Below are positions 5,228-38,683 of a stretch of 64,000 bases of DNA, one piece after another; within the stretch, counting starts at the first letter, position 1, and every line of letters starts with the position of its first letter. This stretch comes from Thermoanaerobaculia bacterium (GTDB lineage: Bacteria; Acidobacteriota; Thermoanaerobaculia; Multivoradales; Multivoraceae). The notes under the pieces are model-generated. The model did not search any database. It was not told the DNA's origin and was given only the letters and a program-made list of their open reading frames with translations. Location: positions 3,038,542 through 3,102,541 of the forward strand of contig OZ220742.1 of NCBI GenBank assembly GCA_965116955.1, given 5' to 3'. Position numbers and translations under genes: made by a program.

Positions 5228-5375
5228 GGTCGTCGATCCTCCTGAGGGGGCGAGCGACGTAGGTTGCAAGTTCCGGGCCGACGTTGCGCTTTGGAAACAG
5301 GGGCGGAGCGGCCGGTATCGGTCCACTGGGGAGGTAGTCAGTCGACGTCACACGAGGAGGAGCGGACCGCCCTGC

Positions 5376-5411
5376 CCCTGTCCCCGGTTTACGCAACCGG
5401 GGCGGACAGGG
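5376..5411 (-). terminator. GC-rich stem-loop immediately downstream of fabI stop (possible intrinsic terminator, no U-tract)
   Basis: Inverted repeat cccctgtccccgg / ccggggcggacaggg with a 9-nt loop, about 20 nt after the fabI stop codon. No poly-U, as is common in high-GC genomes. Confidence 0.3.
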
Positions 5412-5432
5412 TTTCGTGGGGAGGCGCGGCCT

Positions 5433-6296
5433 CTAGCCGCTCGTCGTGTCCCGGTCCGGGTGGCGCATCGAGGTGATGTTGAACCCGGCGTCCACGAAGT
5501 GAATGCCGCCGGTGGTTCCGGCGCTCAGGTCGGACAGCAGGTACGCGGCGGTGGCGCCCACGTCGTCGACGGTGATGTTGCGTTGAAGCGGCGCCCGTTC
5601 CGGCATCACTTTCAGCATGCCGCGCATCCCCGAGACGCCGGACGCGGCGAGTGTCCTCACCGGTCCGGCGGAGATGCCGTGAACACGGATGTTCTTTGGG
5701 CCCAGATCGACGGCGAGATAGCGGATCGAGGCCTCGAGCGCCGCCTTGGCGATACCCATCACGTTGTAGTTCGGGGTGGCCTTGGTGGCGCCGTAGTAGG
5801 TCATCGCGATGATGCTGCCGCCGCCGGTCATCAGCGGTTCGGCGGCGCGGGCGAGCGCGATCAGGGAGTAGCAACTGATGTCCAGGGCGGTGGCGAAGCC
5901 GGCGCGCGAGGTGTCGACCGTGCGGCCGAGCAGGTCTTCCCGGTTGGCGAACGCCACCGAGTGGACGAGGAAGTCCAGGCGGCCCCAGCGCTCCGCGAGA
6001 GTGGCGAAGACGGCTTCGATCTGGTCGTCGTCCGTTACGTCGAGCGGCTCGACGATCTCCGATTCGATGCTCTCGGCCAGCGGCCGCACACGCCGTTCGA
6101 GGGCGTCGCCCTGGAACGTGAACGCGAGCTCGGCGCCTTCCTCGTGGGCGCGCCGGGCGATGCCCCAGGCCAGGGAGCGCTTGTTCGCGACGCCGACGAC
6201 GAGGCCCCGCCGGCCGGCGAGCAGTCCCTTCGACGTGGCGCCGGCGGCTTCGAACGGAAGATCGCCGGGCGTTGATTCGGGCGAAGTCACGGGCAT
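5433..6296 (-). CDS. fabI: enoyl-[acyl-carrier-protein] reductase (NADH), FabI
   Basis: Collinear similarity to E. coli FabI ([33 protein letters not shown] versus [34 protein letters not shown]), SDR fold, ~280 aa. Confidence 0.9.
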   Translation of the reverse strand: [287 protein letters not shown]

Positions 6297-6344
6297 CGGG
6301 ATTGTAGCGCTCTACGGCGCAAGCCCCTAGACTGACCGTGGCAC

Positions 6345-7232
6345 ATGGTCTCCCTGCTCGGCATCGTGCTGGTGGTCGGCGCGACGCTCTGCTTCTCGCT
6401 GTTCGACCTGCTGCGCAAGAAGCTCACCGGTCGCCTGAGCGACGCCTTCCTGGTCATGGTTCTGGCGCTCGGCGCCGTGCCCCTCTACGGCCTGTGGGTG
6501 GCCTTGCAGCCGCCCGCCGCCGTGAGTGCCGCGTACGTGTGGCCGGGTGTGGCCTCCGTGGCGTGCAACCTGGGCGCGAACTACGGCTTCCTGCGCTCCG
6601 TGCGCCTTTCCGGGCTGAGCGCGGTGATCCCCCTGCTCTCGCTGACGCCGGTCTTCACGTCGCTGCTCGCGATCCCCCTGCTTGGCGAACTGCCGGGCGC
6701 CCGCGAGTGGTTCGGCATCGCGATGGTCGTGTTCGGCGCTCTCGCCCTCCAGTTGGGGGAGCGGACCGGAGAACGTCGCCAGCCGTGGAGACTGAGCGCG
6801 GGAGCGTGGTGGATGATCCTGGTCGCCTTCCTGTGGGCGTCGGCGCTGCCGCTCGACAAGCTCGCGACCGAAGCCTCGAACGCGGCCTTCCACGGCCTGA
6901 TCCTGCACCTAGGTGTCGGCCTGTCCGTGTCGACGCTCGCGCTTCGCGGCCTGCGCGAGGCGCCGGGCGTGCGCCGTGGCGGGGACTCTCGCGCGGGAGC
7001 TGGGCTCTGGGCTCTGCTCCTGACGGCCGTGGTCCTCGGCGCCGCGGCGCAGGGACTCCAGTTGCTGGCGCTGCAGCACGCCTGGGTCGGCTTCGTCGAG
7101 ACGGTGAAGCGGGGTATCGGATCGTCGCTGGCGCTGGTGCTCGGCCGCGTCTTCTTCGCGGAGCCGCTCACGCTGCGCAAGGTGTTGACGGTGGCCGTGA
7201 TCGCGGCCGGCGTCGCGGTGATGCTCTGGTAG
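6345..7232 (+). CDS. EamA/DMT-family transporter (10-TM permease)
   Basis: Highly hydrophobic 295-aa protein with a duplicated 5-TM EamA-like pattern. Divergent from fabI. Confidence 0.7.
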   Translation: MVSLLGIVLVVGATLCFSLFDLLRKKLTGRLSDAFLVMVLALGAVPLYGLWVALQPPAAVSAAYVWPGVASVACNLGANYGFLRSVRLSGLSAVIPLLSLTPVFTSLLAIPLLGELPGAREWFGIAMVVFGALALQLGERTGERRQPWRLSAGAWWMILVAFLWASALPLDKLATEASNAAFHGLILHLGVGLSVSTLALRGLREAPGVRRGGDSRAGAGLWALLLTAVVLGAAAQGLQLLALQHAWVGFVETVKRGIGSSLALVLGRVFFAEPLTLRKVLTVAVIAAGVAVMLW

Positions 7233-7243
7233 CTTGACGATCG

Positions 7244-8821
7244 ATGGCCTGCGGTTTCCTGGGTGACTATCGGCTCCGCCTGGCCGTCGTCCTGGGCCTC
7301 GTTGTCATGGGCTCCGGTGGTGCCGGCGCCCAGGTGTCGCGCCTGTCCCAGATCGAGTTGCCCGATGGCTTCTCGATCGGCTTCTTCGCCGAGAACGTCA
7401 CGGGCGCGCGGTCGCTCACGCAGAGTCCCGGCGGCACGGTCTTCGTCGGCACGCGGCAGGCGGGCCTGGTCCATGCGCTGGTCGACGCGGACGGCGACGG
7501 CGACGCGGACGAGCGCTATCGGATCGCCTCGGGCCTGAACTCGCCGAACGGCGTGGCCTTCCGCGACGGCAGCCTCTACGTCGCCGAGATCAGCCGCATC
7601 CTCCGGTACGACGGCATCGAGAACCGGCTGGACTCGCCTCCGCAGCCATTCGTGGTCACGGACCGGCTTCCGACCGACACGCATCACGGCTGGAAGTTCA
7701 TCCGCTTCGGACCGGACGGCCGGCTGTACGTGCCTGTAGGCGCTCCCTGCAACATCTGCAACGAGGCGGACCCGTACAACGCGATCCTGCGGCTGGCCGC
7801 CGACGGCAGCTACGAGATCGTGGCGCGGGGCGTCAGGAACACAGTCGGCTTCGACTGGCATCCTGGAACGCGGAGGCTGTGGTTCACCGACAACGGCCGG
7901 GACTGGCTGGGCGACAACAGGCCGCCGGACGAACTGAACGTGCTGACCTCGAATGGCCAGCACTTCGGTTACCCGTTCTGCCACGGCCGGGACATCTCCG
8001 ATCCGGAGTTCGGCTCGCTCGGTTCCTGCTCCGAGTTCCGGCCTCCGGTCCAGGAACTCGGACCGCACGTGGCTGCCCTGGGCATGCGCTTCTACACCGG
8101 CGAGATGTTCCCGGAGCGCTATCGCGGGCAGATCTTCATCGCCGAGCACGGGTCCTGGAACCGCACGGATCCGATCGGCTACCGGGTCATGCTGGTTCGT
8201 CTGGACGGCGGCGGACGGGCGACCGTGTACGAGGAGTTCGCCAAGGGATGGCTTCAGAACGGGACCGCCTGGGGCCGGCCGGTCGACGTCATGGTGCGCG
8301 AGGACGGTTCGCTGCTGGTGTCGGACGATCGGCTTGGAGCGGTCTACCGCATCGTCCACGAGTCCGGAAGCAGCGAAGAACCCGACCCCGAACCGCCTCC
8401 ACCGGACCCCGAGCCGGATCCTGATCCCGAGCCCGATCCACCGCCACCGCAACCCGGCGATCCCTGCGTGGCGAGCGAGGAGACTCTCTGTCTGCACGCC
8501 GACCGCTACGAAGTCCGCGTCGAGTGGTGGACCGGCGACGGGGAGACGGGTTCGGCCCAGGTGGTTCCGGAAGCGACGGACGACTCCGGCCTGTTCCGGT
8601 TCTTCGAAGCGGAGAACTGGGAGATCCTGGTCAAGGTGCTGAACGGCTGCGACACCAATGGTCACTACTGGGTGTACGGAGCTTCGACGACGACGCTGGG
8701 CTACGTGATCCGCGTCACGGACACGGCGACGGGCGACGTTCGGGAGTACCGGAACGAACCGGGGCGGTCGGCGGCCGCGATCACGGACGCCAGGGCCTTT
8801 CAGGACAGTTGCCGCCCGTAG
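7244..8821 (+). CDS. PQQ-dependent sugar dehydrogenase (soluble glucose/sorbosone dehydrogenase family) with PE-rich linker and extra ~110-aa Cys-containing C-terminal domain
   Basis: Beta-propeller GSDH-type motifs (NGVAF, HHGWKFIRFGPDGRLYVPVGAPCNIC, NTVGFDW, FTDNGRD, GYPFCHG, FIAEHGSWNR), a signal peptide, then the EPDPEPPPPDPEPDPDPEPDPPPPQPGDP linker and a domain with 4 Cys. Confidence 0.8.
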   Translation: MACGFLGDYRLRLAVVLGLVVMGSGGAGAQVSRLSQIELPDGFSIGFFAENVTGARSLTQSPGGTVFVGTRQAGLVHALVDADGDGDADERYRIASGLNSPNGVAFRDGSLYVAEISRILRYDGIENRLDSPPQPFVVTDRLPTDTHHGWKFIRFGPDGRLYVPVGAPCNICNEADPYNAILRLAADGSYEIVARGVRNTVGFDWHPGTRRLWFTDNGRDWLGDNRPPDELNVLTSNGQHFGYPFCHGRDISDPEFGSLGSCSEFRPPVQELGPHVAALGMRFYTGEMFPERYRGQIFIAEHGSWNRTDPIGYRVMLVRLDGGGRATVYEEFAKGWLQNGTAWGRPVDVMVREDGSLLVSDDRLGAVYRIVHESGSSEEPDPEPPPPDPEPDPDPEPDPPPPQPGDPCVASEETLCLHADRYEVRVEWWTGDGETGSAQVVPEATDDSGLFRFFEAENWEILVKVLNGCDTNGHYWVYGASTTTLGYVIRVTDTATGDVREYRNEPGRSAAAITDARAFQDSCRP

Positions 8822-15687: not shown

Positions 15688-16674
15688 TCAGGCGCGTTCC
15701 GCGGGGAACGCGACGAGTTCGTCGATGCGCCCGGCTCCAAGTTCGAGTCCGAGCAGCCGGTCGAAACCAAGCGCCACTCCCGCGCAGGGCGGGAGCCCCG
15801 ACTCCAGCGCCGCCAGGAACCGGGACGGCATCGGCGGTAGCGGTCGGCCGGTTTCGCGGCGGCTGGCCAGGTCGTTTTCGAGGCGCTGCCGCTGTTCGGC
15901 CGGATCGCGGAGTTCGCCGTAGCCGTTGGCGAGTTCGATCTCTCCGACGTAGGCCTCGAAACGCTCGGCGGTGCGGGGATCGGAGGCGTTCAACCGCGCC
16001 ATCGCGGCCTGGGAGGCGGGATAGTCGAAGACGACGGTGACGTGGTCGGGCGCGAACCGGGGCTCGACCCGTTCGCCGAACAGCCGCGAGAGCAGGTCGT
16101 CCCGGTCGAGGCCGCCGGTGTCGACGGGCGAAGGGGTGTCCTCGACGGCCTGCCGGAGAGCTTCGGTCGAGGAGTCGTACGGATCGACTCCGGCGTGACG
16201 CTGCAGGAGATCGGCGTAGCTCGCGTAGACCGCCGGCTCCAGGCGGCGCGAACCGGCGAGCAGGGTCTCGATCAGGGCCGCGACCTCCCTCATCAGGCGG
16301 TGCACGTCCCATCCCACGCGATACCACTCGAGGATCGTGAACTCGGGGTTGTGCCAGCGGCCGCGCTCGCCGCCACGGAACGCCTTGCACACCTGGTAGA
16401 TCGAACCGGAACCCGCGGCGAGCAGGCGTTTCATCGCCAGTTCCGGCGAGGTCTGGAGGTACATCCGCTCGCCCTCGACGCCCGGCGCATCGACCCGGGA
16501 GCTCAGGGGGTTCAGGTGCCGGTCGAGGGTGGTTTCGGCGGACAGCAGCGGGGTTTCGACCTCGAGCACCCCTCGCTCGGCGAAGAAGGCGCGCAACTCG
16601 GCCAGCATGGCCGCCCGTCGTTGCAGGGCGGTCAGCCCGGCGGTGGGCCGCCAATCCGCGGCGTCGCCCGTCAC
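15688..16674 (-). CDS. epmA: EF-P--(R)-beta-lysine ligase EpmA (PoxA/GenX, LysRS paralog)
   Basis: Near-collinear match to E. coli EpmA (RAAMLAELRAFFAERGVLEVETP, HNPEFTILEWYR, GVALGFDRL). GTG start at 16674 lies 8 nt after the efp stop. Confidence 0.85.
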   Translation of the reverse strand: MTGDAADWRPTAGLTALQRRAAMLAELRAFFAERGVLEVETPLLSAETTLDRHLNPLSSRVDAPGVEGERMYLQTSPELAMKRLLAAGSGSIYQVCKAFRGGERGRWHNPEFTILEWYRVGWDVHRLMREVAALIETLLAGSRRLEPAVYASYADLLQRHAGVDPYDSSTEALRQAVEDTPSPVDTGGLDRDDLLSRLFGERVEPRFAPDHVTVVFDYPASQAAMARLNASDPRTAERFEAYVGEIELANGYGELRDPAEQRQRLENDLASRRETGRPLPPMPSRFLAALESGLPPCAGVALGFDRLLGLELGAGRIDELVAFPAERA

Positions 16675-16682
16675 CGTCCGCC

Positions 16683-17252
16683 TTAGGTCTTGCCGCGGGA
16701 AACGTACTCGCCGGTGCGGGTGTCGACCCGGATGGACTCGCCGGTCTGGATGAAGAGCGGCACCTTGACGACCGCGCCGGTCTCGAGCTTTGCCGGCTTG
16801 TTGCCGCCGCTTGAGGTGTCTCCCTTGAGCCCGGGGTCCGTTTCGACCACCTCCCGGACGACGAAGTTCGGCGCCGCGACGAGGATCGGATGGCCGTTCC
16901 AGAGCGTCACGTTGCAGATGTCCTCTTCCTTGATCCACTGCTCGGCGCCGCCGAGGGCCGAGGCGTCGGCCTCGACCTGGTCGTAGGTGTCGGGGTTCAT
17001 GAAGAACCAGTGCTCGCCGTCGGTGTAGAGGTACTGCATCGAGGTCTCGATGACGTCGGCGCCTTCGAGCAGGTCGCCCGGCTTGTAGGTCTTCTCGTTG
17101 ACCCGCCCGTTCAGGAGGTTGCGCATCTTGACCCGGGTGAACGCCTGGCCCTTGCCGGGTTTGATGAAATCGCACGCGATGATCACGTTCGGCTCGCCGC
17201 TTTCGAGCACCTTGAGCCCGGTGCGGACCTGGTTCATGTTGTAGCTGGCCAT
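16683..17252 (-). CDS. efp: translation elongation factor P
   Basis: [15 protein letters not shown] loop with conserved Lys, 189 aa, three OB-like domain pattern. Confidence 0.9.
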
Positions 17253-18626: not shown

Positions 18627-18652
18627 CGACTAGACGCAGGCGGCTCTAGTCG
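18627..18652. terminator. 8-bp perfect inverted repeat (cgactaga...tctagtcg) between convergent DUF4097 and EVE genes; possible bidirectional terminator
   Basis: Hairpin starts 2 nt after the DUF4097 stop and overlaps the EVE gene stop codon. No U-tract. Confidence 0.3.
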
Positions 18653-19131
18653 GCGTCGGAGACGCCGGCCATCGCGCAGACGATCCGCCATTCCCGTTCG
18701 GTCACCGGCTGGACGGAGAGCCGCTGGCCCCGGCGGAGCAGGGCCATTCCCTCCAGATCGGGTCGCTGTCGCAGTTCGGCCAGCGGGACGGGCTCGTCGA
18801 ACTTGCACTCGAACTCGATGTCGACGAGGTACCAGCGGGGATTCTCCGGGTCCGCCTTCGGGTCGTAGTGGGAATCGTCCGGGTCGAACTGGGTCGGATC
18901 GGGGTAGGACTCGCTGCACACCCGGGCGAGACCGACGACGGCCGTCGGCTTCGCGTTCGAGTGGTAGTAGAGAACCCCGTCGCCGATGCGCATCCGGTCC
19001 CGCATCAGGTTGCGCGCCTGGTAGTTCCGCACGCCGTCCCAGTACGTCTTGCCGTCGCGCTCAAGGTCGTCGATCGAGTACTCGCCCGGCTCGCTCTTCA
19101 TCAGCCAGTACTGGCGGGGTTCATCGGTCAT
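18646..19131 (-). CDS. standalone EVE-domain (PUA-like) protein
   Basis: YWLMKSEPGEYSIDDL...DGVRNYQARNLMRDRMRIGDGVLYYHS is typical of the EVE/THYN1 fold. ATG at 19131 is preceded by an AAGGAGA RBS. The upstream 54 codons of the track ORF are not counted. Confidence 0.8.
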   Translation of the reverse strand: MTDEPRQYWLMKSEPGEYSIDDLERDGKTYWDGVRNYQARNLMRDRMRIGDGVLYYHSNAKPTAVVGLARVCSESYPDPTQFDPDDSHYDPKADPENPRWYLVDIEFECKFDEPVPLAELRQRPDLEGMALLRRGQRLSVQPVTEREWRIVCAMAGVSDAD

Positions 19132-19211: not shown

Positions 19212-19730
19212 ATGGGCATGAAGAAGGAACGGTCGGCGACACGACCGGGTTCATCCCGGAAGGGGAAGTACGCGGGCCTGTTCCGCAATCCACGGATCCG
19301 AACCCGGTCCTCGGCGGCGCGGGTGTCCGAGGCCGCGCGTGCCCAGAGTCCGGGCCCGCCCGGAAGCCCTCGTAGCCGGTTGCCCGGGCCGATTCAGTTC
19401 GTGCTGAAGCTGGCAGGATCCTGGCGTCTGAGTCAGGATGAACTTGCCGGCCTGCTTGGATTCGGCCCGGGAGACGCAGCCCACGCGGCGGCGCTGCTGG
19501 CGGGAAGAGCCGAGCTTCACGGCCGGGATGTTCGCGACCGGATCGCCCACCTGTTCCGCATAAGAGAGACGCTCTATTCGCTCTTCCGGGACCTGGAAGT
19601 CGAGAACGAGTGGCTGCGAGAGCCCCACGAGCTCCTTGCAGGCAAGTCGCCGATGTCGTTGATGGTCGGCGGCTCGATGGAAGACCTGCTCCTGGTCAGA
19701 GAGTACGTGGACGAGGTCGCCGGGTCGTAG
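19212..19730 (+). CDS. Xre/ParS/MbcA-type antitoxin (DUF2384 toxin-binding domain); start uncertain
   Basis: C-terminal ENEWLREPHELLAGKSPMSLMVGGSMEDLLLVREYVDEVA matches the DUF2384 antitoxin signature. It precedes the RES gene by 3 nt. Alternative GTG start near 19392. Confidence 0.7.
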   Translation: MGMKKERSATRPGSSRKGKYAGLFRNPRIRTRSSAARVSEAARAQSPGPPGSPRSRLPGPIQFVLKLAGSWRLSQDELAGLLGFGPGDAAHAAALLAGRAELHGRDVRDRIAHLFRIRETLYSLFRDLEVENEWLREPHELLAGKSPMSLMVGGSMEDLLLVREYVDEVAGS

Positions 19731-20425: not shown

Positions 20426-23400
20426 GTGAGCGACGCTGATGGCGAGCGCAAGGCCGGCGCGCCCTCGCCGGGGACATTTGGTGAGTGGGTCGGAGGGGAA
20501 TCCGAGGAGGTTCCGGCACCTTCCGACCCGCAGGATGCTGAGGTTGTGCTGGGCGAGGGGTGCGCCTCCTTGCCCGAACGGCTACTGCTCCATCATGCCG
20601 AGGGGAAGGTGCTCTTCCTGGCTGGAGCGGGTGTCTCAATGCCTAAGCCGGCCTGCCTGCCGAGCTTCAGGGACTTAGTCCTGAAGGTGTACAAGCAACT
20701 CGGTGATCCGGTACTGCCCTTTCTTGAAGCGCCTGCGGGAGACAGGGACGAGTTACCAGAGGGGCCGCCCCTTACTCCAGAACAGAAGGCGGAAGTCGAG
20801 AGCTTCGAGAAGCGGCAACTCGATGTCGTGTTGGGAATGCTCGAACGCCGGATTGACGGTCAGCAGACGGAAGAGAGCCGAATGCGGCAAGCAGTGGTCA
20901 GGCTGCTACAGCCGGATCCGCCTGCCGAGTACGCCGGGATTCACCGGGATCTGCTCCGGCTCTCCGATCGTGGCGGCGTCACTGCGATCCTGACGACGAA
21001 CTTCGATCTCCTGCTGGAGGCGGCTGGTAGAGAAGCCAAGTGCTCCGTCGAGAGTCTAGCGCTCGGCGCCATTCCGAGGCCGTCACTACGACCCTCGTTC
21101 AGCGGAGTGCTGCATCTCCATGGCGCTCTTCGCCCAGACCGGAGCGGTATTCCCGACTTGATCCTGACCAACAGGGACTTCGGTGAGTTCTACCTGCGCC
21201 GGCGAATCGTGCCGGACTTGCTGTACGACGCGGCACGTATCTTCCACCTCGTTCTCGTGGGCTACACGGCGAACGATCCTCCTGTTCGCTATCTCCTGGA
21301 CGCGATCTCGGCCGACGCGGCTCGGTTTCCCGACTTGAAGGAGCGGTTCATCTTCGTACCGTTCAAGGGAAACGAACCGGACCAGACGGAACTCGCAGAC
21401 TGGAAGGGGCGCGGCCTGACGCCGATCCCGTATCCGCGGGCGGATAGCCACCGGAAACTGGCCTTCACGCTCGAAACGTGGGCCAACCTCTTCGGGAAGA
21501 CGCCGTCACTTGACGGCGGGCACGAAACGGTGACCGAACGGCGAATCCGCAAGACGCTGGAGCGGATCACGGAGGCGCCGCTCAACGAGGTGTCAGACGA
21601 GGATCGGAGTCTCTTCGACCACCTGATTCGGCGGGAAGTCCACACTCGACGCGCAGAGCTTGCCAGTCGCCTGGGAGAGCTCCGCAGGGACTACGAGTGG
21701 TTGGATCGGATACTGGCTGTGATTCGAAGACCGATCAATCGGAGGGACCAAGACACTAGGTCACTCGCTCCACCGTCAGGCGAGATTGAACGCGAGGCGG
21801 CGCACTGCGTGCGGAACTTCGTGCTGAAGCGGCTTGAGGAACGGGCCACGATCAATTGGGCTCGTGAACTGCCGGCCCTCGATCGTGCCAGCCGTCGCGG
21901 GCTGCAGCGACTACTCTCCAACAGGGCGAGCTGGGGAGAACGGCTGTCGGAACCGTGGTTCAAGGCATGGCAGTTGGTGGAGAAGAGTTGGTGCGCCCCT
22001 GAGTACGCTGATCGGGAAGAGGCCTTGACGAGGGTCTGGGAGATCAAGGAGCGGCTTGAGCGTGGGGACCGGTCTCTTGCCCTGGCGGAGAAGATGGCTG
22101 AGTTCGTGGCGCCGTGGCTGCGACTGGATGACCCGGTACCGGTCATTGAAGTGCGAGGAGTGAAGAGCCCTGAGCCGCCGGTCTGGGGCCACCTCTTTCG
22201 GGCCGAACTCGGGAGCGTTGCGGTGAGCGAACTTCATCACATCGACCTCAGTATCGTCTCCGAAGTCGAGTTCCTGTCGTTTCTGGTCGGTTCGCTGGAG
22301 GCGTCCGTCCGTCGAGGTCTCGACTTGGCGCGGTACATCGGTTGGGAGGGCGACTTCCGGTTCCTGCGTCTTGGGGGATTGTTTCGCGTCAGTTTGGTTC
22401 GTAGCGCTGCCGGAGACGAGGAGGATCCGGATTTGTGGGGTGTCGCGCCTTCCGTCAAGCTTCTCCACGCTGCGGTCGAGCGTCTGGCCGAACTCGATCC
22501 TGGTGCCGCCTCAAGAGTGGTTCGGCGCTGGCTGCACACCGAGTGTCCGGTGCATCGGCGGCTCTGGGCCGCGTTTGCCCTCGACGAGCGGCTAGCGAGT
22601 ACGCGCGAGGTCGGGGGTTTGCTGCTCCGTCTGGACCATTGGGAGTTCTGGGCCAGAGAAGTTTGTCCCGAACTGGCGGAACTGCGCCTTGGTCGCTTCA
22701 ACGATCTCGATGCTGAGACCCGGGCAGAGTCGCTCGCCCGCATTCGGCTGGGCCCGCCGCGCGACTACTGGGTTCGGTCCACTGACAGGAAGCGGGCCGA
22801 AGCCTGGAGCCTTGAGCTCGCTGTCCGCGAGATGGAGCGCGTCCGCAACGCTGGAGTCGAGCTACCGGCCGAGCACGAGAGGTGGCTGGAAGCCGAATTG
22901 AAGAAGCACCGTGATCTTGAGACTGACGACAGCGGGCGCCCACTCGTGGAGGACCTGGAACCTGAACGTGCGGAGGTGCAGCCAGACCGGGAGCTGGACA
23001 GCTATACCGGCGGCGCTCTGCTAGTCGAGTTGGAGCAGCGGCTGGCCTCGGAGGAGCCCTTCTACAGCGGGGCCGCTGGTATCTGGCTGAAAAACAATGC
23101 GGCCAGAGTCCTGGTCGCGATGACTGAGGAGGCTGACGGTGTCCTCGATTCCCCTCACCTCTGGAGGGCGTTCGCGGAGCAGCACCGCCCGCCACGTAGC
23201 GACGATCCGGAGGGCTCCCTGCGCGAGGCCGCCGCTGAAGCAACAAAGGTGCTGGATCTCGTCGAGACTCTCAGTGACGAAACGCTGGCCAAGATTGTCA
23301 AGGAACTCGTCCGCTGGTGGATGAAGTGGGAGTCTCTAGCGAAGCCGGACGGGCAGGCTCGGCGTGTGTGGCTGCGCCTATGGCCTCACGCGGTGGACCG

Positions 23401-24427
23401 GACGATCGCAAGCTCAAACGCCATGTCGTTCAAGACCGAGATGGCCAACACGCCGGCCGGAGATCTCGGCCGGATCGCCTGGCGGTTCGCGCACCATCTC
23501 GGCCAGGAAGGTCGGTTGTCGGATGACCGCGATTTCGCTCGGATCGTCGCCGCGATCCTGGAGGCGCCCGGTCGGGCCAGACCTCTGGGTTTGGCGTTCA
23601 TGGCCAGTGGGGTTGCCTGGTTTCTGCAAGAGGACCAGGAGTGGGCTGAGCGACACTTGGTGGGACCGCTCATGGAGTGGTCCGATTCGGCCGTTCCCCT
23701 TTGGGAATCTCTGTGCAGTTTCGGGTTGCGCTCGGGGATCCCGAGGATTCTCGCTGCCAAGGCCGTGGAGCTCCTGGAACGGAAGGAGGAACCCAAGCTG
23801 ACCGCGGGATCCCGGCAGCGGCTTGCGTCGGCGCTCGTGGTCGATTCTCTGCGCGCCTTTTTCCACGGTAGCGAACCGGTGGTTGAACCGGTTCAGTTGA
23901 AGCAACTGATTAGTCGAATGGACGGAGAGCTTCGGAGCGTGTGTGCCGCTGCGCTCTGGCGCAGCTTGACGGCCCGCGGCGACGGATCGACGAGCCCGGA
24001 AGAGGCTTTCCGCCGGGCGGTGTCGCCGTTCCTCAAGCGCGTCTGGCCGCAGGAGTTGGATCTGGTTACGCGGGGCGTCAGCCACTCCATGGCGAGAATC
24101 CCAGCGGCGAGTCGGGGAGAGTTCATAGGAGCGGTTGAGGCTGTCGCCAGATTCCTTGTCCCTGGATCCACAGGGTCGCGTCACGACTATGGGCTCTATG
24201 GACAAGAGGACGGCGAAGAGCGCTTGGAGATCATCGTCGATAGCCCGCAGAAAGCGGAGGCACTGCTTCGTCTTCTCGACTTGACGGTCGGGGGCGGGGA
24301 AGGCGTGACGACTCCGCTGGGCCTTGATGAGCTCTTGGCGCAAATCCGTGACGTAGCGCCGACTCTTGTCGAACGCTCGGAGTTCGTCCGCCTGACAACG
24401 CAGGCACAGCGGAGCAGGTTCGAGTAG
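20426..24427 (+). CDS. 1333-aa SIR2-like (SIR2_2/DHS-like NAD-binding) domain protein with ~900-aa alpha-helical C-terminal region (defense-associated sirtuin-like)
   Basis: N-terminal KVLFLAGAGVS...ILTTNFDLLLE...VLHLHGAL...LVLVGYTANDPPVRYLL matches the SIR2_2 pattern, including the Asn and His equivalent to ThsA/DSR catalytic residues. GTG start with a GGAGG RBS 9 nt upstream. The rest is helical, Trp/Arg-rich, with no motif recognisable by eye. Confidence 0.75.
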   Translation: MSDADGERKAGAPSPGTFGEWVGGESEEVPAPSDPQDAEVVLGEGCASLPERLLLHHAEGKVLFLAGAGVSMPKPACLPSFRDLVLKVYKQLGDPVLPFLEAPAGDRDELPEGPPLTPEQKAEVESFEKRQLDVVLGMLERRIDGQQTEESRMRQAVVRLLQPDPPAEYAGIHRDLLRLSDRGGVTAILTTNFDLLLEAAGREAKCSVESLALGAIPRPSLRPSFSGVLHLHGALRPDRSGIPDLILTNRDFGEFYLRRRIVPDLLYDAARIFHLVLVGYTANDPPVRYLLDAISADAARFPDLKERFIFVPFKGNEPDQTELADWKGRGLTPIPYPRADSHRKLAFTLETWANLFGKTPSLDGGHETVTERRIRKTLERITEAPLNEVSDEDRSLFDHLIRREVHTRRAELASRLGELRRDYEWLDRILAVIRRPINRRDQDTRSLAPPSGEIEREAAHCVRNFVLKRLEERATINWARELPALDRASRRGLQRLLSNRASWGERLSEPWFKAWQLVEKSWCAPEYADREEALTRVWEIKERLERGDRSLALAEKMAEFVAPWLRLDDPVPVIEVRGVKSPEPPVWGHLFRAELGSVAVSELHHIDLSIVSEVEFLSFLVGSLEASVRRGLDLARYIGWEGDFRFLRLGGLFRVSLVRSAAGDEEDPDLWGVAPSVKLLHAAVERLAELDPGAASRVVRRWLHTECPVHRRLWAAFALDERLASTREVGGLLLRLDHWEFWAREVCPELAELRLGRFNDLDAETRAESLARIRLGPPRDYWVRSTDRKRAEAWSLELAVREMERVRNAGVELPAEHERWLEAELKKHRDLETDDSGRPLVEDLEPERAEVQPDRELDSYTGGALLVELEQRLASEEPFYSGAAGIWLKNNAARVLVAMTEEADGVLDSPHLWRAFAEQHRPPRSDDPEGSLREAAAEATKVLDLVETLSDETLAKIVKELVRWWMKWESLAKPDGQARRVWLRLWPHAVDRTIASSNAMSFKTEMANTPAGDLGRIAWRFAHHLGQEGRLSDDRDFARIVAAILEAPGRARPLGLAFMASGVAWFLQEDQEWAERHLVGPLMEWSDSAVPLWESLCSFGLRSGIPRILAAKAVELLERKEEPKLTAGSRQRLASALVVDSLRAFFHGSEPVVEPVQLKQLISRMDGELRSVCAAALWRSLTARGDGSTSPEEAFRRAVSPFLKRVWPQELDLVTRGVSHSMARIPAASRGEFIGAVEAVARFLVPGSTGSRHDYGLYGQEDGEERLEIIVDSPQKAEALLRLLDLTVGGGEGVTTPLGLDELLAQIRDVAPTLVERSEFVRLTTQAQRSRFE

Positions 24428-31885: not shown

Positions 31886-32300
31886 GTGACGGAGGCGGCC
31901 GGACTCTACGTCCACATCCCGTTCTGTTCGGCGATCTGCCCGTACTGCGACTTCGCGGTGGTGCGTGGAGGCGAGACGGATCGGGAGCGGTTCGTTGCCG
32001 CTCTTGACAGGGAGATCGAGGAACGTGGTTCAAATGCGGATGAAGGCGGATTCGCCGGCGGGCGGGCCGGTCTTCGAGGCTGCCGGGTTCGACACGGTGT
32101 ACTTCGGGGCGGTACGCCGTCGGCATTGAGCCTCGAGCAGCTTGGGGCGATTCGGCGGCGGTTGGTCGGGACGTTCGCGATCGATCCGGAGGCTGAGTGG
32201 CCGATCGACGTGAATCCGGAGGATGCGTCGGCTGAGGCTGGCGGGGTGGCGGGAGCTTGGCTTCGACCGGATCAGCCTGGGGCTGAAGGCTCTGGACGCG
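31886..32300 (+). pseudogene. degraded duplicate of the hemW 5' end (radical-SAM CX3CX2C region), about 90% identical by eye to 38686-39100; frameshifted and truncated
   Basis: Nucleotide-level alignment by eye with the intact hemW start: same YVHIPFCSAICPYCDF block, about 1 substitution per 10 nt, a 1-nt deletion near 32110. Homology ends at about 32290, where a transposase fragment begins. Confidence 0.7.
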
Positions 32301-32641
32301 CTGCGGACATCACCTACATTCCGGTCCGTTCAGGCTTCCTGTACCTGGTGGCGGTGATGGACGCCGGGATCAGAATCATGATGGACGGCCGCGGCCGCTT
32401 CTTCGACAACATCTTCATCGAGCGCCTCTGGCGCTCCCTCAAGCACGAGGCGGTCTACCCGCACGAGTTGGCCTCGGGCCTCGAGGCCCGAGGCATCATC
32501 GGCGGATGGATGGCCTTCTACAATGACGAAAGGCGGCACACGGCGCTCGGCCGTAGCACGCCTGCCGAGGCACACCGCCGACTGATCGGCATTCCGCAGA
32601 ATCGACAGTTTTCCACAGCCCCGGCGGCGGCTGCGGCGTGA
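32291..32641 (+). mobile_element. IS3/IS481-family DDE transposase (rve integrase core) remnant, 5'-truncated and internally deleted
   Basis: DITYIPVRSGFLYLVAVMD (first catalytic Asp region) is fused directly to C-terminal FDNIFIERLWRSLKHEAVY...YNDERRHTALGRSTPAE. The middle of the core is missing. Confidence 0.6.
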
Positions 32642-32746
32642 TCAGACCATGAAGCACACTCTTAGTTAGCTCCGCCCCGAAACTGTCCAAAAGAACCGGG
32701 ACCACCTCTAAACGACCCGGGTCTCATAACGGATCCAAGTCGCTCG

Positions 32747-35700
32747 CTACTGATCTGGGACAATACCAACATTCCCTGCTGACGACATGAACAAAGTGCC
32801 AAAGGTCCCTCTATCCGACTCCAATCCTCCTGGTCTCAATGCCTCTCTACTGCCGAGTTGATCTTCCGGGATGAAGCCGGACGCAGCCACATTCTTCGCA
32901 CCATCGATCCAAAACCAGGCACCTGGCTTCAAGTTCCTGACCTCTAACCTCCCGCCGCGGTAAGCGCCGGTCCTCCTGAAGCAGAACGCTCTTTCGATCC
33001 GGCCGCTCACCGTGCCCGTTGGATCAGCGTAGAAAGTGTTCCAGCTATGAGTGTTCCCACAGACGACCTTGACTCTCACCGGTTTCCCCGGATCTGCCGC
33101 TTCTCCTACGAAACCTCCGGCACCGCCCCAATACGGCGCTACGTACAAAGGATCCTTCTGTTCCAGCTCCTTGCTGTGAACAATGATGGCCGACACTCCT
33201 GAAACATGAGTGAGAAAACTAGCATATCTTCCAACATCCGTTTGGACCGCGTTCGGAACGAACGCCGGCACATCCCCATCAAGATGATCCTTGCAGACAA
33301 GAGGAGCCACGGCCACTCCGTTCTTCGGGGTCTGAATCCAGTACCAGCCGTTGTCTTGAATGCCAGCAAACGAAACAGTGCCGCGTCGGGCACGACCCTC
33401 CCGGTCCCGGCAAAAAGGCAGGTCGACCAACCTGACGATCATTCGTTGGCGATTGTCGCCAATGAACTCGTCTGAGACGTGCCTCCGAAAACCACAAGAT
33501 ACCGTGACTTCGGCAGAGGTGTTCCCGCCTTCCGGCCTGATGACGAATCCGCCGTTACCCCTCCAATAAGGAGTCACATGCGCCGTGCGACATTCCGAAG
33601 TGGCATAGACACCATCGTCGTCCTCCTCGTGATCAGTTGGCGGCAAAGGCGGAAGAGGATCTCGCTCAGGGGGCAATGGACGCGGAACTGCTGGGGGAGA
33701 GCCCTTGATATGACCGAAGATCGTCAAGTTCCATGAGTTCAGGGTGGAGGCGGCATCGGGATCATGGCGTTCATCGCGAATACGAAGTCGCCAAACACCG
33801 TTGGCAGTCTCCCCAATGTGCCTGGCGCTGCCTGTTCGCAGAAAGCCGTCGACCGCGACTTCAGGAGGATAGCCGATGTCAGGTTGCAGTTTGACCGGAA
33901 CGGTGAGGACCGAAACGGCGCCTGAGGGAGACTCGAGTTCCATGCGAAGGTGGCGGAGAGTCTCTGACTGGAGCTCCATCTCGATTGCAACGAACTCTAT
34001 AAAATCAATGCTGGAGTCCGCGATTGTGATCGTGTTTACAAGACCGAACGCAGAATCGCGATTCGCCGTATCGCCCAGTGGAAGAAAAACGCCCGGAGTT
34101 GGAGCGACCCCGATGTCCGCATTGGGAATAGTGAGACTGAGATTGTCATTGGAAGAGTAGGTGCCCTCGATCATCGCGCCCACACGGCCTCTGCGCTCCC
34201 AGTCCTCTGCCAGTTCGATAGCTGCTTCTAGATCGACAAGGCCGTAGCCGTACTTGTGGCTGAACCGGTACTGTTCGGACGGCGAGCCATACTTTCCTGC
34301 GCCTACAGCCCAGTTACCGTCTACCAAGCCGGCCTGCGTGGCCGATCCTGCGAGAATGAGCCGCACGTCCCTCCACATACACCGATGGCAAGCCTGGCGA
34401 ACGAGCGCGGCTACTCCCGAGACGAGCGGCGCCGATCCTGAGGTGCCGTTGAATGTCTTCACATACCTACTGTAGGGCCATGTCGTCATCAAAGCCGGAT
34501 CAGGGGCAGGGGGATCGACATCAGAGCCAGCGTGTGGGTCCTTCTGGGAAGGTGCACAGAGAAGAAGATTGGAGCCGAACTGCGAATAGGATGCTACTTC
34601 TCCGTCTTCTCCTACAGCGCAGATGGCCGCCACTCCATAGTAACTCGCCACCTCACTCAGGTTGGAGTAGGCCAGGTCCGCCGCACCCGCCCGATCGTTG
34701 CCGCCGGCAAACACGTAGAAGACACCCTTCCCGCCATAGCCCCGGGACACACCGAGGTCAATCGCCTTGCGCCAGATAGCATCGGACAGTGCCGGACCCG
34801 TAAATCCGATCCGGCCAGGACCCCAACTGTTGTTGGAAACCGCAGCTGTGCGAACGTTAATCAACATCGACTCTGCAGCGCCGAGGGCTGTAGAATTGGC
34901 ATCGAGATAGTTGACGCCGAATAGTTTGGCCCGAGGTGCAACACCTCGGCTTCCGAAGGAGTTGTCTCGAGCTGCGATCAGGCCCGCGACCTGTGTGCCG
35001 TGATTAGCCCATAAGCCGAGCAGATTGCCGTCGCCACTGTAGTCTAAGCTCAAGTCTTTTTCGACGTTCTGAACGAGGTCCGCGTGCTGCAGATCGAGAC
35101 TGTCATCCACTACTCCTACCAAGATTCCCTCGCCTCTATACGTGTTCCAGGTGTCACCCACGGAGATATCAATGCCAGATCCGGTATTACTCAAATGCCA
35201 CGCGCAGCCCGCATAGGGATCCGAGAGAAGTGTGGGCGGGCACCCGTCAAGGAACCGTTGGGAAACATCTACGATGCCCAGAATCGCGTAGTAGTACTCC
35301 CGTCCAACGCTTCGGGGGAAGACCCGCACGGAGTAGGCGCCGGCGTCAAGGAGCGCCGTAATCGTGAATCCGCTCGGACCTTTGTGCCAAAAAGGTTGGT
35401 CGTAGTGAACACGACCAACGGGGCGACCAACGGAGTCGGTCATCACGGCATCCACGACGCCTCCGTGAGAAAAGCCCCTAATGAAGACTGCTTCCCTTTC
35501 GGTTAGGATGAACTCGTACCGAGTACCAGGTCCAACTGCTCTCGTCCTACCGACGAAAGGGCGCCCAAAGTAGCCGAAGAGCGTTCCCATATCCAAAGTG
35601 CGAGAGGCAAGTTCGAGGTTCTGGGCAGTCATATACACAACGGTTGGATACGCATTCTCGGCTCCGCCAGTAGTCCCACCTCTCCTAAGACGCAAAAAAT

Positions 35701-36913
35701 ACGTACCAGGCGCGAGCTCACCGTACAAGTACGGTCTGCCATAGCTAGATGAGAACAAATCAGATTCGCCTCCTAAAAGAGCGTTCTGGTCCTCGTCGTC
35801 GGCCAAGGAGTCTGCTGCCGGGCAGCAGTCGCTTTCGGAGTAGACTGCAATCCTCATACGTGCCCGATTCCATGCACTAATCAACACGGCTGTCTGCTCC
35901 TCGATGACGAAGCGGAACCATTCATCATCAAGTCCGAACTGAACCTCCACCGGCTTTCCGTCCACCAACTTGATGTGGTTCAGCATCGAGCCTGCGGACG
36001 TGTTCATTGCCGGCACATCGAAGTAGAGGTCCCCAGGCCGATCGGAATTTGTATCACACTCGGCCTCCTCTGACGGAAAATCCGGAAAGTCCCGCCAGGT
36101 CAGGTCGGCATGACCGAACTCGTAGATCCAAACGGTGTACGCACCTGGACGAGATGCGGGTGCATCGGGATCGGACGCAACCTGAAAGTGAAGAGTCCCC
36201 GTGAAAGAACCCGTGGTTTTGAAGTAGAGGAGGGCGTCGTTGTACTCGCCGTCAGGGACCCGCGCGTCAAAGATGGGAAGTGATAGACTCAGAGGTGGCG
36301 GAGGAGGAATGGCGGGGTCTGGAGCCTCGAGTATGTTCCATTTGAGGACTTCCGGCAGTGAGAGGCCGAGCCTGCCTGTTGTCATGATTGCGAGGCATCG
36401 GGTTCCGTCGACGTCAAACTGATAGTGATCGACATCGCTCGAAGAAGACAAGAATCCTGCAATGGGAACGCCAATTGGAACCGGAGTGGCATTGCGAATG
36501 TTGGCGATGTATTGCTCCAGTTCTGCCGGCGGAGGGAGAGTCTCCGGGAGGCCGGCGGAGTCGCCTGGCGTTGTCCGTGCAAGAGTGGACCAGGCGCCGG
36601 AGCCAGAACCGGATATCGCCCGAACCTGGACGCGATACTCGATCGCATTCTCTAGGCCAGATAGAAGCTCGTACAGGACGTTGCCATGCGTGCGGTTTCC
36701 TACGCCAACGATGTGTGTCCAGTTCGTACCGCTATCGGACGAGTACCGAAGTTCATGTGTGAGATTTGCTTGATCAGGCGTAGTCCACGTGACGGAGAGA
36801 GACCGCTCACCCTTCCAAAGCTCGACATCAGTGGGTGGTGGCGGCTGAGTACGAGCCAGAGATGCGGTCATTGTGAACATGATGAGGAGGAGGCAGATGA
36901 GCTTTGGCATCAC
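32747..36913 (-). CDS. 1388-aa secreted multidomain S8 subtilisin-family peptidase (signal peptide, FN3, about 3 PPC-like domains, S8 catalytic domain, P-domain-like, 2 C-terminal repeats)
   Basis: Catalytic triad motifs VGVVDDS, NHGTQVAG, GTSGSAPLVSG. FN3-like N-terminus. D.Y.F / D.WFRF PPC-like repeats. Repeated PYW.G.GGFV C-terminal modules. Visibly lower GC and different codon usage than the flanks. Confidence 0.8.
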   Translation of the reverse strand: MMPKLICLLLIMFTMTASLARTQPPPPTDVELWKGERSLSVTWTTPDQANLTHELRYSSDSGTNWTHIVGVGNRTHGNVLYELLSGLENAIEYRVQVRAISGSGSGAWSTLARTTPGDSAGLPETLPPPAELEQYIANIRNATPVPIGVPIAGFLSSSSDVDHYQFDVDGTRCLAIMTTGRLGLSLPEVLKWNILEAPDPAIPPPPPLSLSLPIFDARVPDGEYNDALLYFKTTGSFTGTLHFQVASDPDAPASRPGAYTVWIYEFGHADLTWRDFPDFPSEEAECDTNSDRPGDLYFDVPAMNTSAGSMLNHIKLVDGKPVEVQFGLDDEWFRFVIEEQTAVLISAWNRARMRIAVYSESDCCPAADSLADDEDQNALLGGESDLFSSSYGRPYLYGELAPGTYFLRLRRGGTTGGAENAYPTVVYMTAQNLELASRTLDMGTLFGYFGRPFVGRTRAVGPGTRYEFILTEREAVFIRGFSHGGVVDAVMTDSVGRPVGRVHYDQPFWHKGPSGFTITALLDAGAYSVRVFPRSVGREYYYAILGIVDVSQRFLDGCPPTLLSDPYAGCAWHLSNTGSGIDISVGDTWNTYRGEGILVGVVDDSLDLQHADLVQNVEKDLSLDYSGDGNLLGLWANHGTQVAGLIAARDNSFGSRGVAPRAKLFGVNYLDANSTALGAAESMLINVRTAAVSNNSWGPGRIGFTGPALSDAIWRKAIDLGVSRGYGGKGVFYVFAGGNDRAGAADLAYSNLSEVASYYGVAAICAVGEDGEVASYSQFGSNLLLCAPSQKDPHAGSDVDPPAPDPALMTTWPYSRYVKTFNGTSGSAPLVSGVAALVRQACHRCMWRDVRLILAGSATQAGLVDGNWAVGAGKYGSPSEQYRFSHKYGYGLVDLEAAIELAEDWERRGRVGAMIEGTYSSNDNLSLTIPNADIGVAPTPGVFLPLGDTANRDSAFGLVNTITIADSSIDFIEFVAIEMELQSETLRHLRMELESPSGAVSVLTVPVKLQPDIGYPPEVAVDGFLRTGSARHIGETANGVWRLRIRDERHDPDAASTLNSWNLTIFGHIKGSPPAVPRPLPPERDPLPPLPPTDHEEDDDGVYATSECRTAHVTPYWRGNGGFVIRPEGGNTSAEVTVSCGFRRHVSDEFIGDNRQRMIVRLVDLPFCRDREGRARRGTVSFAGIQDNGWYWIQTPKNGVAVAPLVCKDHLDGDVPAFVPNAVQTDVGRYASFLTHVSGVSAIIVHSKELEQKDPLYVAPYWGGAGGFVGEAADPGKPVRVKVVCGNTHSWNTFYADPTGTVSGRIERAFCFRRTGAYRGGRLEVRNLKPGAWFWIDGAKNVAASGFIPEDQLGSREALRPGGLESDRGTFGTLFMSSAGNVGIVPDQ

Positions 36914-37431
36914 ATCTTGTCCAACTGAAGCAGCCAGTTCGGCGACGCAATGGCGACGCCCTCGTGTATCGCGAGCTTGTTGGCCAGATCGAGGGTTTCG
37001 TGAATCGTGGGCTTTGTGGGGATAATGAAACTATTGGGCATCCAGTCGAGAGCCTTGGCATCAGATAGTCCATGAGCGATGAGGAACGCACGGACTCTTT
37101 CGTTGGTCCAGTCGGCGTCCAACACGAGAATGACCCCTCCGACTAACGCTCTCAGGTTTCCCGCAGAGTCCTGAAAGACGGGATTCGAACGTGAAGGCTC
37201 TTTAGTAGGCGACGTGGCGCTCGGATGAGCTGAAAGGGGGGCGTCCGTTGTTGCTTTGGCGATTCTCAGCTTTCCGTTCTTCGATTTCTCGACGAGGTAG
37301 TCCCTTTGTAGAACGATGCGGATCTGACGACTACCGTCATAGTAGAAGTATGCAGGATCGTGTGGCTCTTGTGCTAAGAGTGGGTTTTGAAGGAGGGAGA
37401 GGCTCAGGATTGCGAGGGGCAGTACCTTCAT
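36910..37431 (-). CDS. small secreted protein, C-terminal part resembling subtilisin propeptide/inhibitor I9 fold; translationally coupled to the S8 peptidase (ATGA overlap)
   Basis: Signal peptide MKVLPLAILSLSLLQNPLLAQ. C-terminal LVLDADWTNERVRAFLIAHGLSDAKALDWMPNSFIIPTKP...LANKLAIHEGVAIASPNW fits the I9-like pattern (inference). ATG at 37431 is preceded by a GAGGAAA RBS. Confidence 0.5.
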   Translation of the reverse strand: MKVLPLAILSLSLLQNPLLAQEPHDPAYFYYDGSRQIRIVLQRDYLVEKSKNGKLRIAKATTDAPLSAHPSATSPTKEPSRSNPVFQDSAGNLRALVGGVILVLDADWTNERVRAFLIAHGLSDAKALDWMPNSFIIPTKPTIHETLDLANKLAIHEGVAIASPNWLLQLDKM

Positions 37432-37699
37432 ACGTCTTTCCTCGGCCACCAGAACGGTGCTCAGCGGGTTCATCGAGCAGCGTTGGTTGGGAGTGTGCGC
37501 GGAGAGCGAGTGGTGCAAGGGTTGTGTGTCCGCGAGGATCCGATGTCAGGCAACGGGCGGTGGCATGCTCGTTTGAGGCGAGTGTGGCACATTTATGCGA
37601 AAGAAGCGCGAAGGAAAGGGCGTGAAAGGCGACTGGAGTGTGAATAGAGGGCGCACGTTGTTGGTCGCTAGCCTGAAGCTGGTCGGTCGGCGACCCAGG

Positions 37700-38595
37700 C
37701 GGGGCAGGCAGGCCTCGAGGCCGCGGAGCCAAGGGTCTGCCGGGTCCTTCGCGAGCGGTCGGTGGAGGCGAGCCCAACGAGAACGTGCCGCAAGTAGGAC
37801 GAGCGCGGAAGCGAGAGGATCGCAAAGGCAGGGCCCGCAGCGCCGTCACGGCACCCACTGGAGCAGGCGCCGCCTGGCAGCGAAGCTCGGCGTTTCCCAG
37901 ATGACGATCGCGCGGCTGTGGCGCAAGCACGGTCTGCGGTCTCATCGGCTCCATCGGTACATGGCGCCCAACGACCCGGACTTCGAGAAGAAGACGGCTG
38001 AGATCATCGGCCTGTACGTGAATCCACCCGTCCACGCGGCGGTGTTCTGTGTGGACGAGAAGACCGCGATTCAGGCTCTGGATCGCAAGGACCCGGTGCT
38101 GCCGCTGTCCCCGGGTCGTGCAGAGCGTCACGGCTTCGAGTACCGGCGCCACGGGACGGTGTCGCTGCATGCGGCGTTCAACACGGACACCGGCGAGGTG
38201 GTGGGCGAGACGGCGCCTCGGCACACGTCCGAAGAGTTCGTGGCCTTTCTCGGCGAGTTAGTGGCTCATCACCCCAAGGGGCAGGAGATCCCGTCATCGT
38301 GGACAACTTCTCCGCGCACAAGACCGCCAAGGTGGCCAAGTTCCTCGACGCTCATCCCAACGTCCACATGCGCTTCACGCCAACCTACTCGTCCTGGCCT
38401 AATCAGGTCGAACTCTGGTTCGGGAAGATCCAACGCGATGTCATCGCCAGGGGCGTGTTCACGTCCGGCGCCGACCTGCGACGAAAGCTGATGCGTTACG
38501 TCCGCGAATACAACAAGAAAGCCAAGCCCGTGAAGTGGAAATACACCAATCCGTCAAGACGACTTAGTGCCGAAACCCAAGTTACAGTCGACTAG
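37700..38595 (+). mobile_element. IS630 (Tc1/mariner)-family transposase pseudogene: degenerate N-terminus and a 1-nt frameshift near 38285
   Basis: LGVSQMTIARLWRKHGL HTH, FCVDEKTAIQALDRK (first D), then a frame change between HHPKGQEIP and VIVDNFSAHKT (second D), then FTPTYSSWPNQVELWF (E region). Confidence 0.65.
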
Positions 38596-38683
38596 GAGCC
38601 GATCGTCGGCGCGAGAATCCGGGGTTCCTTGCCAGGGATGAGGAGCACGATTGGGGCGGTAGGGTTCAATGGTGAGGAGCGGG

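Follow-up and report, generated by a model that had tools for sequence, protein, structure and literature searches.

The subject of this analysis is a large sirtuin-like gene of a Thermoanaerobaculia bacterium, on a stretch of 64,000 nucleotides from contig OZ220742.1 (assembly GCA_965116955.1, positions 3,038,542 to 3,102,541). This whole stretch is called the window below. The gene is a single uninterrupted open reading frame (ORF) of 1333 codons at 20426-24427 on the forward strand, exactly where an earlier reading of the sequence alone (the original prediction) had placed it. Going by sequence comparison and predicted structure, its product is probably an anti-phage protein of the DSR1 superfamily that combines sensor and effector in a single chain. 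This means that it is a new and divergent addition to a known kind of defence protein, and not a new type of protein.

The similarity to DSR1 covers the whole protein. Dsr1 hidden Markov models (HMMs) match it with E 1.4e-60 (PADLOC) and E 4.4e-82 at 276.5 bits (NCBIfam). The long C-terminal tail is also recognised by itself. Residues 401-1333 match the NCBIfam model with E 8.8e-33 and the PADLOC model with E 2.3e-20, and in the NCBIfam match tail residues 135-926 run colinearly along profile positions 501-1261 of 1263. The earlier statement that the tail has no recognisable motif is thereby overturned.

Profiles were also compared with hhalign. When a profile of the clade around the window protein (59 sequences) is set against one built from 17 DSR1-like proteins, the probability is 100%, with E 8.2e-91 over 1191 columns (positions 17-1316 against 27-1297). 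One of those 17 proteins, P0076, matches the NCBIfam Dsr1 model along its entire length. The clade profile was also aligned with WP_053264524.1, a protein of 1263 aa from an E. coli plasmid that the Prokaryotic Genome Annotation Pipeline (PGAP) names 'anti-phage defense-associated sirtuin Dsr1'. Here the probability is again 100%, with E 3.4e-55 over 1158 columns. In a simple BLASTP comparison with the same protein, the head is 31% identical (E 5e-40) and the tail 19% over 674 aa (E 2e-07). Of the features by which a member of the DSR1 superfamily is known, a SIR2_2 head with GAGxS and an Asn/His pair is there, and so is a colinear sensor on the same polypeptide.

The original prediction had called the protein longer than the described DSR1, and had suggested that it may represent a distinct family. 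The length argument needs correcting. Canonical DSR1 has 1263 aa, not 1000-1100, and the Dsr1 models are 1248-1275 positions long; the excess of the window protein is about 70 aa. The alignments suggest that the bulk of this excess is an N-terminal leader of about 45 aa. The suggestion of a distinct family itself runs contrary to the end-to-end colinear alignments. A 'giant orphan sirtuin' of uncultured Acidobacteriota is in this way accounted for by a known defence family. Overall, the earlier observation is partly confirmed and its interpretation partly supported.

The ORF is a true coding sequence and not a chance ORF of a high-GC genome, because its G+C content is position-specific, its HMM matches have E values of 1e-60 or better, and it has hundreds of homologues. 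The G+C fractions at the three codon positions (GC1, GC2 and GC3) are 0.71, 0.47 and 0.73, in a window with a G+C content of about 69%. The start codon is GTG, with GGAGG 9 nt upstream. GC3 is 0.82-0.95 in the surrounding host genes, well above that of the sirtuin gene. The composition and codon usage of the gene are foreign, which points to horizontal transfer.

The head of the protein fits its earlier description as a SIR2_2 domain. The four motifs that had been quoted are all present: GAGVS (residues 67-71), TTNFD (190-194), LHLHG (229-233) and VGYTANDP (278-285). Pfam SIR2_2 covers residues 187-333 with E 4.5e-16. An AlphaFold2 model of residues 1-445, with 56 homologues as input, is confident, with a predicted local distance difference test score (pLDDT) of 87.8 and a predicted template modelling score (pTM) of 0.86. 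When this model is compared with PDB structures by Foldseek, DSR2, ThsA and KomC come out on top with their SIR2 NADase domains. The SIR2 domain of DSR2 matches with E 4e-11 and a template modelling score (TM) of 0.71-0.78, counted on SIR2-only chains.

The catalytic residues can be followed through the homologues. Among 56-59 homologues, G67, G69, S71, H232 and G233 never vary, and N192 is kept in at least 90%. The motifs of catalysis are intact in 58 of 61 relatives in which head and tail are split over two genes and in 69 of 72 fused ones. Aligned pairwise with E. coli Dsr1, the window protein has its TTNFD opposite TTNFD. His232 pairs with the histidine of YLHG there, and His230 with the tyrosine, so His232 is likely the catalytic histidine. 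The Asn/His pair, for which a check had been proposed, is in place; this is not a head that lacks its catalytic residues.

With phmmer, the whole protein has no match among PDB sequences. The clade profile weakly matches KomC, FAM118B and Sirt2/3 in PDB around GAGxS and TTNFD, and its tail matches nothing there. The leader in front of the head is kept only among the closest relatives, as an alignment of N-termini shows, and pLDDT is 48-71 across residues 1-30 of the head model.

The tail was described from the start as helical and rich in Trp, Arg and Leu, and this is borne out by its composition (residues 441-1333: Trp 3.5%, Arg 11%, Leu 12.9%) and by an AlphaFold2 model. The model is an all-alpha solenoid with a pLDDT of 87.1 and a pTM of 0.60. 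A pLDDT of 87 with a pTM of 0.60, together with a low-confidence break at tail residues 393-410, is compatible with two lobes but no proof of them. Between head and tail there is a stretch of low confidence that shows up in both models, with pLDDT below 50 at residues 437-445 of the head model and at positions 1-9 of the tail model. The C-terminal 130 or so residues (VWPQE...RFLVP...LLRLLDLTVG) are conserved family-wide and are the most conserved part of the tail.

A Pfam scan of the tail finds no domain, which is equally true of the tail of canonical E. coli Dsr1. Foldseek against PDB returns only generic HEAT-type solenoids, such as importins, CAND1, SF3B1 and condensin subunits, at TM 0.13-0.30. 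The 50 best of these solenoids are eukaryotic proteins, none above TM 0.3, and DSR2 is not one of them. These matches are uninformative on the ancestry of the tail. The same search against viral structures gives nothing meaningful. Assignment of the tail to a well-known housekeeping family had been named as a result that would speak against the original prediction; the tail is not such a family.

The sensor part of the gene changes much faster than its surroundings. In the closest genome, OZ242353.1 (L002), LepA is 98.8% identical to that of the window, arginase 96%, the EVE-domain protein 96%, Xre 94.8% and RES 86%. The sirtuin head is 87% identical, and its tail 54.6%. In a more distant genome, where LepA is 94.5% identical, the tail is 75% identical. 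Measured along the protein, identity to the closest orthologue is 82-96% for most of residues 1-450, drops to 32-66% at residues ~500-1200 and climbs back to 76-80% in the last ~130 residues. A conserved head with a hypervariable core is the pattern to expect if an immune receptor has a binding surface that is diversifying or exchanged by recombination.

Some relatives are losing the gene, since in one of them it is interrupted and in another truncated. In a Thermoanaerobaculia metagenome-assembled genome (MAG), OZ246956.1 (locus L004 of the survey described below, 7054-8307 on the reverse strand), an ISL3-family transposase interrupts the sirtuin orthologue at about residue 345. In a Multivorans MAG, OZ253534.1 (L006), the match at 6001-7800 is limited to residues 1-603.

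How the protein would work can be sketched in a few steps. The C-terminal alpha-solenoid (~450-1333) would be the receptor for a phage protein. Binding of that protein would activate the N-terminal SIR2 domain (~46-360; Asn192, His232), through either relief of autoinhibition or oligomerisation. The active SIR2 domain would then hydrolyse NAD+, which would starve the phage and possibly arrest the cell. By homology, phage-triggered NAD+ depletion is the likely function.

The expected NADase activity, the anti-phage role and a phage structural protein as the presumed trigger all come from the literature on characterised DSR1. In infected B. subtilis, DSR1 depletes NAD+ transiently and without culture collapse, and it works as a single gene (bioRxiv 10.1101/2021.12.14.472415). 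The trigger of E. coli Dsr1 is the phage major capsid protein, through a sensor common to Avs7 (PMC13581612, PMC12803255). Given a tail identity of 19% and the hypervariable core, the trigger of the window protein may well differ.

Several results weigh against the reading as an anti-phage sensor-effector of the DSR1 type. The equivalog cutoff of the NCBIfam Dsr1 model (NF041818) is 1400 bits, which 276.5 bits misses by far, and identity to the characterised E. coli Dsr1 is just 19-31%. No specific solved structural relative of the tail was found by Foldseek in PDB. A scan for promoters and terminators around the sirtuin gene gave nothing exceeding the expectation from shuffled sequence, and PADLOC recognised no defence system in the adjacent Xre, RES and EVE genes.

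With so low a bit score, the window protein does not count as an equivalog or orthologue of E. coli-type Dsr1. It belongs to the wider DSR1 superfamily, where its sequence places it best in a subfamily that branches off deeply. The other DSR1-like proteins that were scored on the same model, at 219-443 bits, also stay below the cutoff. From the low identity and the low equivalog score it also follows that trigger specificity and outcome, abortive or not, are non-transferable from E. coli Dsr1.

Relatives of the gene were surveyed in one genome per species (species-representative genomes). This gave 401 loci, in Alpha-, Gamma- and Deltaproteobacteria, Nitrospira, Latescibacterota, Planctomycetota and one archaeal MAG. 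The genomes closest to the window are Thermoanaerobaculia / Candidatus Multivorans (Acidobacteriota). Public data also contain a protein identical to that of the window, P0001, on a metagenome-assembled chromosome of 4.58 Mb. The subfamily is thus widespread, although its annotation is uninformative: public records call the relatives merely 'SIR2 family protein' or 'hypothetical protein'.

Gene structure was read from the best 80 of the 401 loci. In 61 of these, head and tail are two ORFs in different frames. The head gene corresponds to residues ~30-432 of the window protein at about 48% identity, and the tail gene to residues ~452-1329 at about 33%; in all 61 loci the tblastn segments are interrupted between residues 432 and 452, with a change of frame. 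Stop and start codons overlap as ATGA at 43 of the 65 junctions examined, and as TGATG at another 12. Such overlaps are a mark of translational coupling and not of sequencing errors. The same pairs of head and tail are found in independent gene calls and in RefSeq annotation, and either half of a pair matches the corresponding region of the Dsr1 model. The split falls on what is a disordered linker in the window protein, residues 437-449.

The tail was also searched for alone. A word-indexed homologue search is shallow, with 33 matches. A profile of the tail alone, run exhaustively on clusters at 50% identity, finds 1736 of them at E <=1e-3, of which 374 reach E <=1e-30. The top 150 clusters include 12 fused proteins with a length of about 1300 aa; most of the others are lone tails (about 850-980 aa), and some are fragments.

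The two modules often make up a translationally coupled two-gene operon, which implies that head and tail work together as a complex, with or without a covalent link between them. In a rough neighbour-joining tree, the window clade is monophyletic, fused, and near the DSR1-like outgroup; other fused members are dispersed within the split clade. This suggests, as an indication only, repeated fusion and fission among the relatives. A single-base change at an ATGA junction would suffice to switch between the two forms. The methods of a 2026 study on Avs7 and Dsr1 mention 'split proteins' (PMC13581612), so the split form has already been seen, though not described.

The two-gene form, a SIR2 gene of about 400 aa with a partner of about 900 aa, can be viewed at 4043-5269 and 5332-8004 of B. 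japonicum plasmid NZ_CP066352.1 (L089), and also in L083, L056 and L084-L087. PGAP labels the two genes no more precisely than 'SIR2 family protein' and 'hypothetical protein'. Such two-gene forms sit on conjugative plasmids and beside integrases, transposases or HipBA. Phages were looked at as well: in 50,697 phage records there is a sole match, a Dsr1-type homologue at 2076-5864 of LC727881.1, in an unannotated stretch of an Stx2c-converting prophage. It aligns to query residues 49-1329 at 29.8% identity, with a query coverage of 44%.

The fused and split forms make up a natural series that is useful for asking how the DSR1 sensor communicates with its NADase. Related genomes with near-identical heads and strongly diverged sensor cores are material for mapping the determinants of specificity. 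Both the dimorphism and the hypervariability are secondary observations here.

In architecture the window protein resembles DSR1 closely. Both have an N-terminal SIR2_2 NADase domain (GAGxS, TTNFD, xLHG), a helical linker and an alpha-helical sensor of about 850 aa without a Pfam domain; they are of similar length, colinear over some 1160 columns, and found as single-gene systems in mobile or variable loci. Besides its low identity and bit score, the window protein differs from DSR1 in its leader, and in belonging to a clade in which the two-gene form predominates. Two-gene operons are also its nearest relatives beyond its own clade, for example in Nitrospira defluvii (FP929003.1), Xanthomonas arboricola and on the Bradyrhizobium japonicum plasmid (WP_248889932.1/WP_248889934.1). 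They share the catalytic motifs and together span window residues ~30-1329, but their head (~400 aa) and tail (~900 aa) are separate polypeptides.

DSR2 has about 1000 aa and senses the phage tail tube protein. The DSR2 of Bacillus subtilis (PDB 8wy8, 8wyb and others) is the best structural match of the head, and it follows the same logic of a SIR2 NADase joined to an alpha-solenoid that senses a phage structural protein. The analogy to DSR2 that had been drawn earlier therefore stands for the SIR2 fold. It does not for the tail, which shows no specific similarity to DSR2 among its top fold matches. Among PADLOC and NCBIfam matches of the protein at E <=1 there is no Dsr2 model, only Dsr1.

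ThsA of the Thoeris system consists of a SIR2 domain and a C-terminal SLOG/STALD domain that binds a signal, and has the TIR protein ThsB as its partner. The ThsA HMM matches are marginal (E 0.02-0.04) and restricted to the SIR2 core; the tail in the window is an alpha-solenoid and not a SLOG domain, and there is no TIR gene near the gene. Avs7 is a STAND NTPase with a TPR-like, bilobed sensor that is homologous to that of Dsr1 (PMC13581612), and phage major capsid protein sets off both. Through this literature link, the tail in the window, as a homologue of the DSR1 sensor, would also be related to the Avs7 sensor. A STAND NTPase domain is absent from the window protein.

Other explanations have been considered. 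One is a family distinct from both DSR1 and DSR2, made up of a SIR2 head and an orphan sensor without known relatives. It would explain why the equivalog cutoff is missed so widely (276 vs 1400 bits), and it agrees with the empty phmmer search of PDB, the empty Pfam scan of the tail, the vague annotation of the relatives and a two-gene form that is undescribed for DSR1. An absent Pfam domain is however also what the tail of canonical E. coli Dsr1 has to offer, the lengths of 1333 and 1263 aa are nearly equal, and the tail by itself matches Dsr1 HMMs colinearly, while profiles align over ~1160-1190 columns with DSR1-like proteins and E. coli Dsr1 at a probability of 100%. We consider a distinct family very unlikely. 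Still further down, as extremely unlikely, is a sirtuin with a housekeeping or regulatory task and no role in phage defence, which would act as a protein deacylase or ADP-ribosyltransferase and have its tail as a scaffold. The flanking genes EF-P, LepA and arginase are indeed housekeeping genes, and the GAGxS region weakly matches Sirt2, Sirt3 and CobB by sequence, but the Pfam match is to SIR2_2 and not to the canonical SIR2 family, and defence NADases are the best structural matches. Nor does a housekeeping gene fit with foreign codon usage, with a break by ISL3 in L004 and a truncation in L006, with a tail that is 55% identical where housekeeping neighbours are at 96-99%, or with patchy homologues on plasmids and beside integrases and transposases.

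Only slightly less improbable than a housekeeping role, and a little less credible than a distinct family, is a three-gene system with the adjacent Xre and RES genes, in which, for example, the sirtuin senses infection and controls the RES toxin, which degrades NAD+. The three genes are co-oriented, only 71 nt lie between RES and sirtuin, their GC3 is similarly atypical (0.73-0.76; 0.75-0.76 for Xre and RES), and it is established for RES toxins that they target NAD+, as the SIR2 module would. The arrangement also recurs in L002, L004, L005 and L006. But in L003 the same locus holds the sirtuin and lacks Xre-RES, and synteny with Xre-RES is confined to genomes of the Multivorans group: none of 77 loci outside Multivorans has a match to Xre or RES nearby (tblastn, E <=1e-5). 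Characterised DSR1 acts as a single gene, and Xre-RES is itself a self-contained toxin-antitoxin pair. Xre-RES is best seen as a neighbouring module in a shared islet of foreign composition, and not as an obligatory partner of the sirtuin. That the sirtuin can stand alone, in variable or mobile surroundings, is indicated by L003, by its foreign GC3, by orthologues disrupted by ISL3 or flanked by transposases, and by homologues on plasmids.

Beyond the assignment to the DSR1 superfamily, a bolder version can be put together. In this version the roughly 1,700 clusters, mostly of two genes, are a separate DSR1-like lineage in which the sensor would activate SIR2 in trans, and in which one-gene and two-gene forms would flip repeatedly through single-nucleotide changes at ATGA. 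The core at ~500-1200 would recognise a trigger other than the HK97-fold major capsid protein, and in Multivorans the protein would cooperate with the adjacent NAD+-degrading RES toxin. As a whole this is speculative and rather unlikely. If the cooperation with RES were true, there would be two chemically different routes of NAD+ destruction, which could not be countered by a single phage pathway that rebuilds NAD+.

The features discussed here and in the following paragraphs are listed in Table 1.

Table 1. Features of the sirtuin gene and its surroundings, in window coordinates.
Feature	Position	Strand	Basis or remark
DSR1-like gene, complete	20426..24427	+	1333 aa, stop codon included in coordinates; ORF list and translation, Dsr1 HMM matches
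N-terminal leader, ~45 residues	20426..20560	+	low confidence, probably disordered; alignment of N-termini, pLDDT
Predicted SIR2 (SIR2_2-type) NADase domain, residues ~46-360	20561..21505	+	Pfam, AlphaFold2 model, Foldseek, conserved motifs
Helical head extension, residues ~361-436	21506..21733	+	helices 369-433 in model; part of the head gene in split systems
Disordered interdomain linker, residues 437-449	21734..21772	+	low pLDDT; corresponds to stop/start junction of two-gene relatives
Predicted DSR1-type alpha-solenoid sensor, residues 450-1333	21773..24424	+	Dsr1 HMMs, hhalign, AlphaFold2 model
EVE-domain protein	18646-19131	-	Pfam E 1.9e-60; borders the islet
Xre/MbcA-type antitoxin	19212-19730	+	Pfam Xre_MbcA_ParS_C
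RES toxin, 206 aa	19734-20354	+	Pfam RES
rve_3 integrase-core fragment fused to 5' radical-SAM gene fragment	31886-32641		
S8 subtilase with P-domain and fn3, 1388 aa	32747-36913	-	
DDE_3/HTH transposase-like ORF	37595-38491		
Intact radical-SAM/HemN_C gene	38669-39844		

Xre, RES and sirtuin together form a 5.2-kb stretch of atypical composition, flanked by the EVE gene on one side and arginase/LepA on the other. The RES gene was also considered as an aRES defence gene, and rejected: aRES proteins are stand-alone, have 300-600 aa and two domains, and here there is a small RES toxin with an Xre antitoxin. In L002, a protein of 2077 aa with DEAD, Helicase_C and MZB(DUF1998) domains is encoded upstream of EVE, where the window has a DUF4097 gene. 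The presence of this DEAD-box/DUF1998 helicase at the same locus suggests that the sirtuin site acts as a small, variable defence hotspot.

Further upstream in the window, at 15688-17252 on the reverse strand, the gene for EF-P (16683-17252) adjoins an ORF that encodes a class II tRNA-synthetase core and overlaps it in another frame. This synthetase-like ORF may be an EF-P lysyltransferase of the EpmA/PoxA type, in what is an ordinary housekeeping context.

Downstream there is an insertion of low G+C content (0.57-0.60) at about 31886-38600. Apparently a mobile element has inserted here, into the 5' end of a hemW-like gene that lies downstream of lepA.

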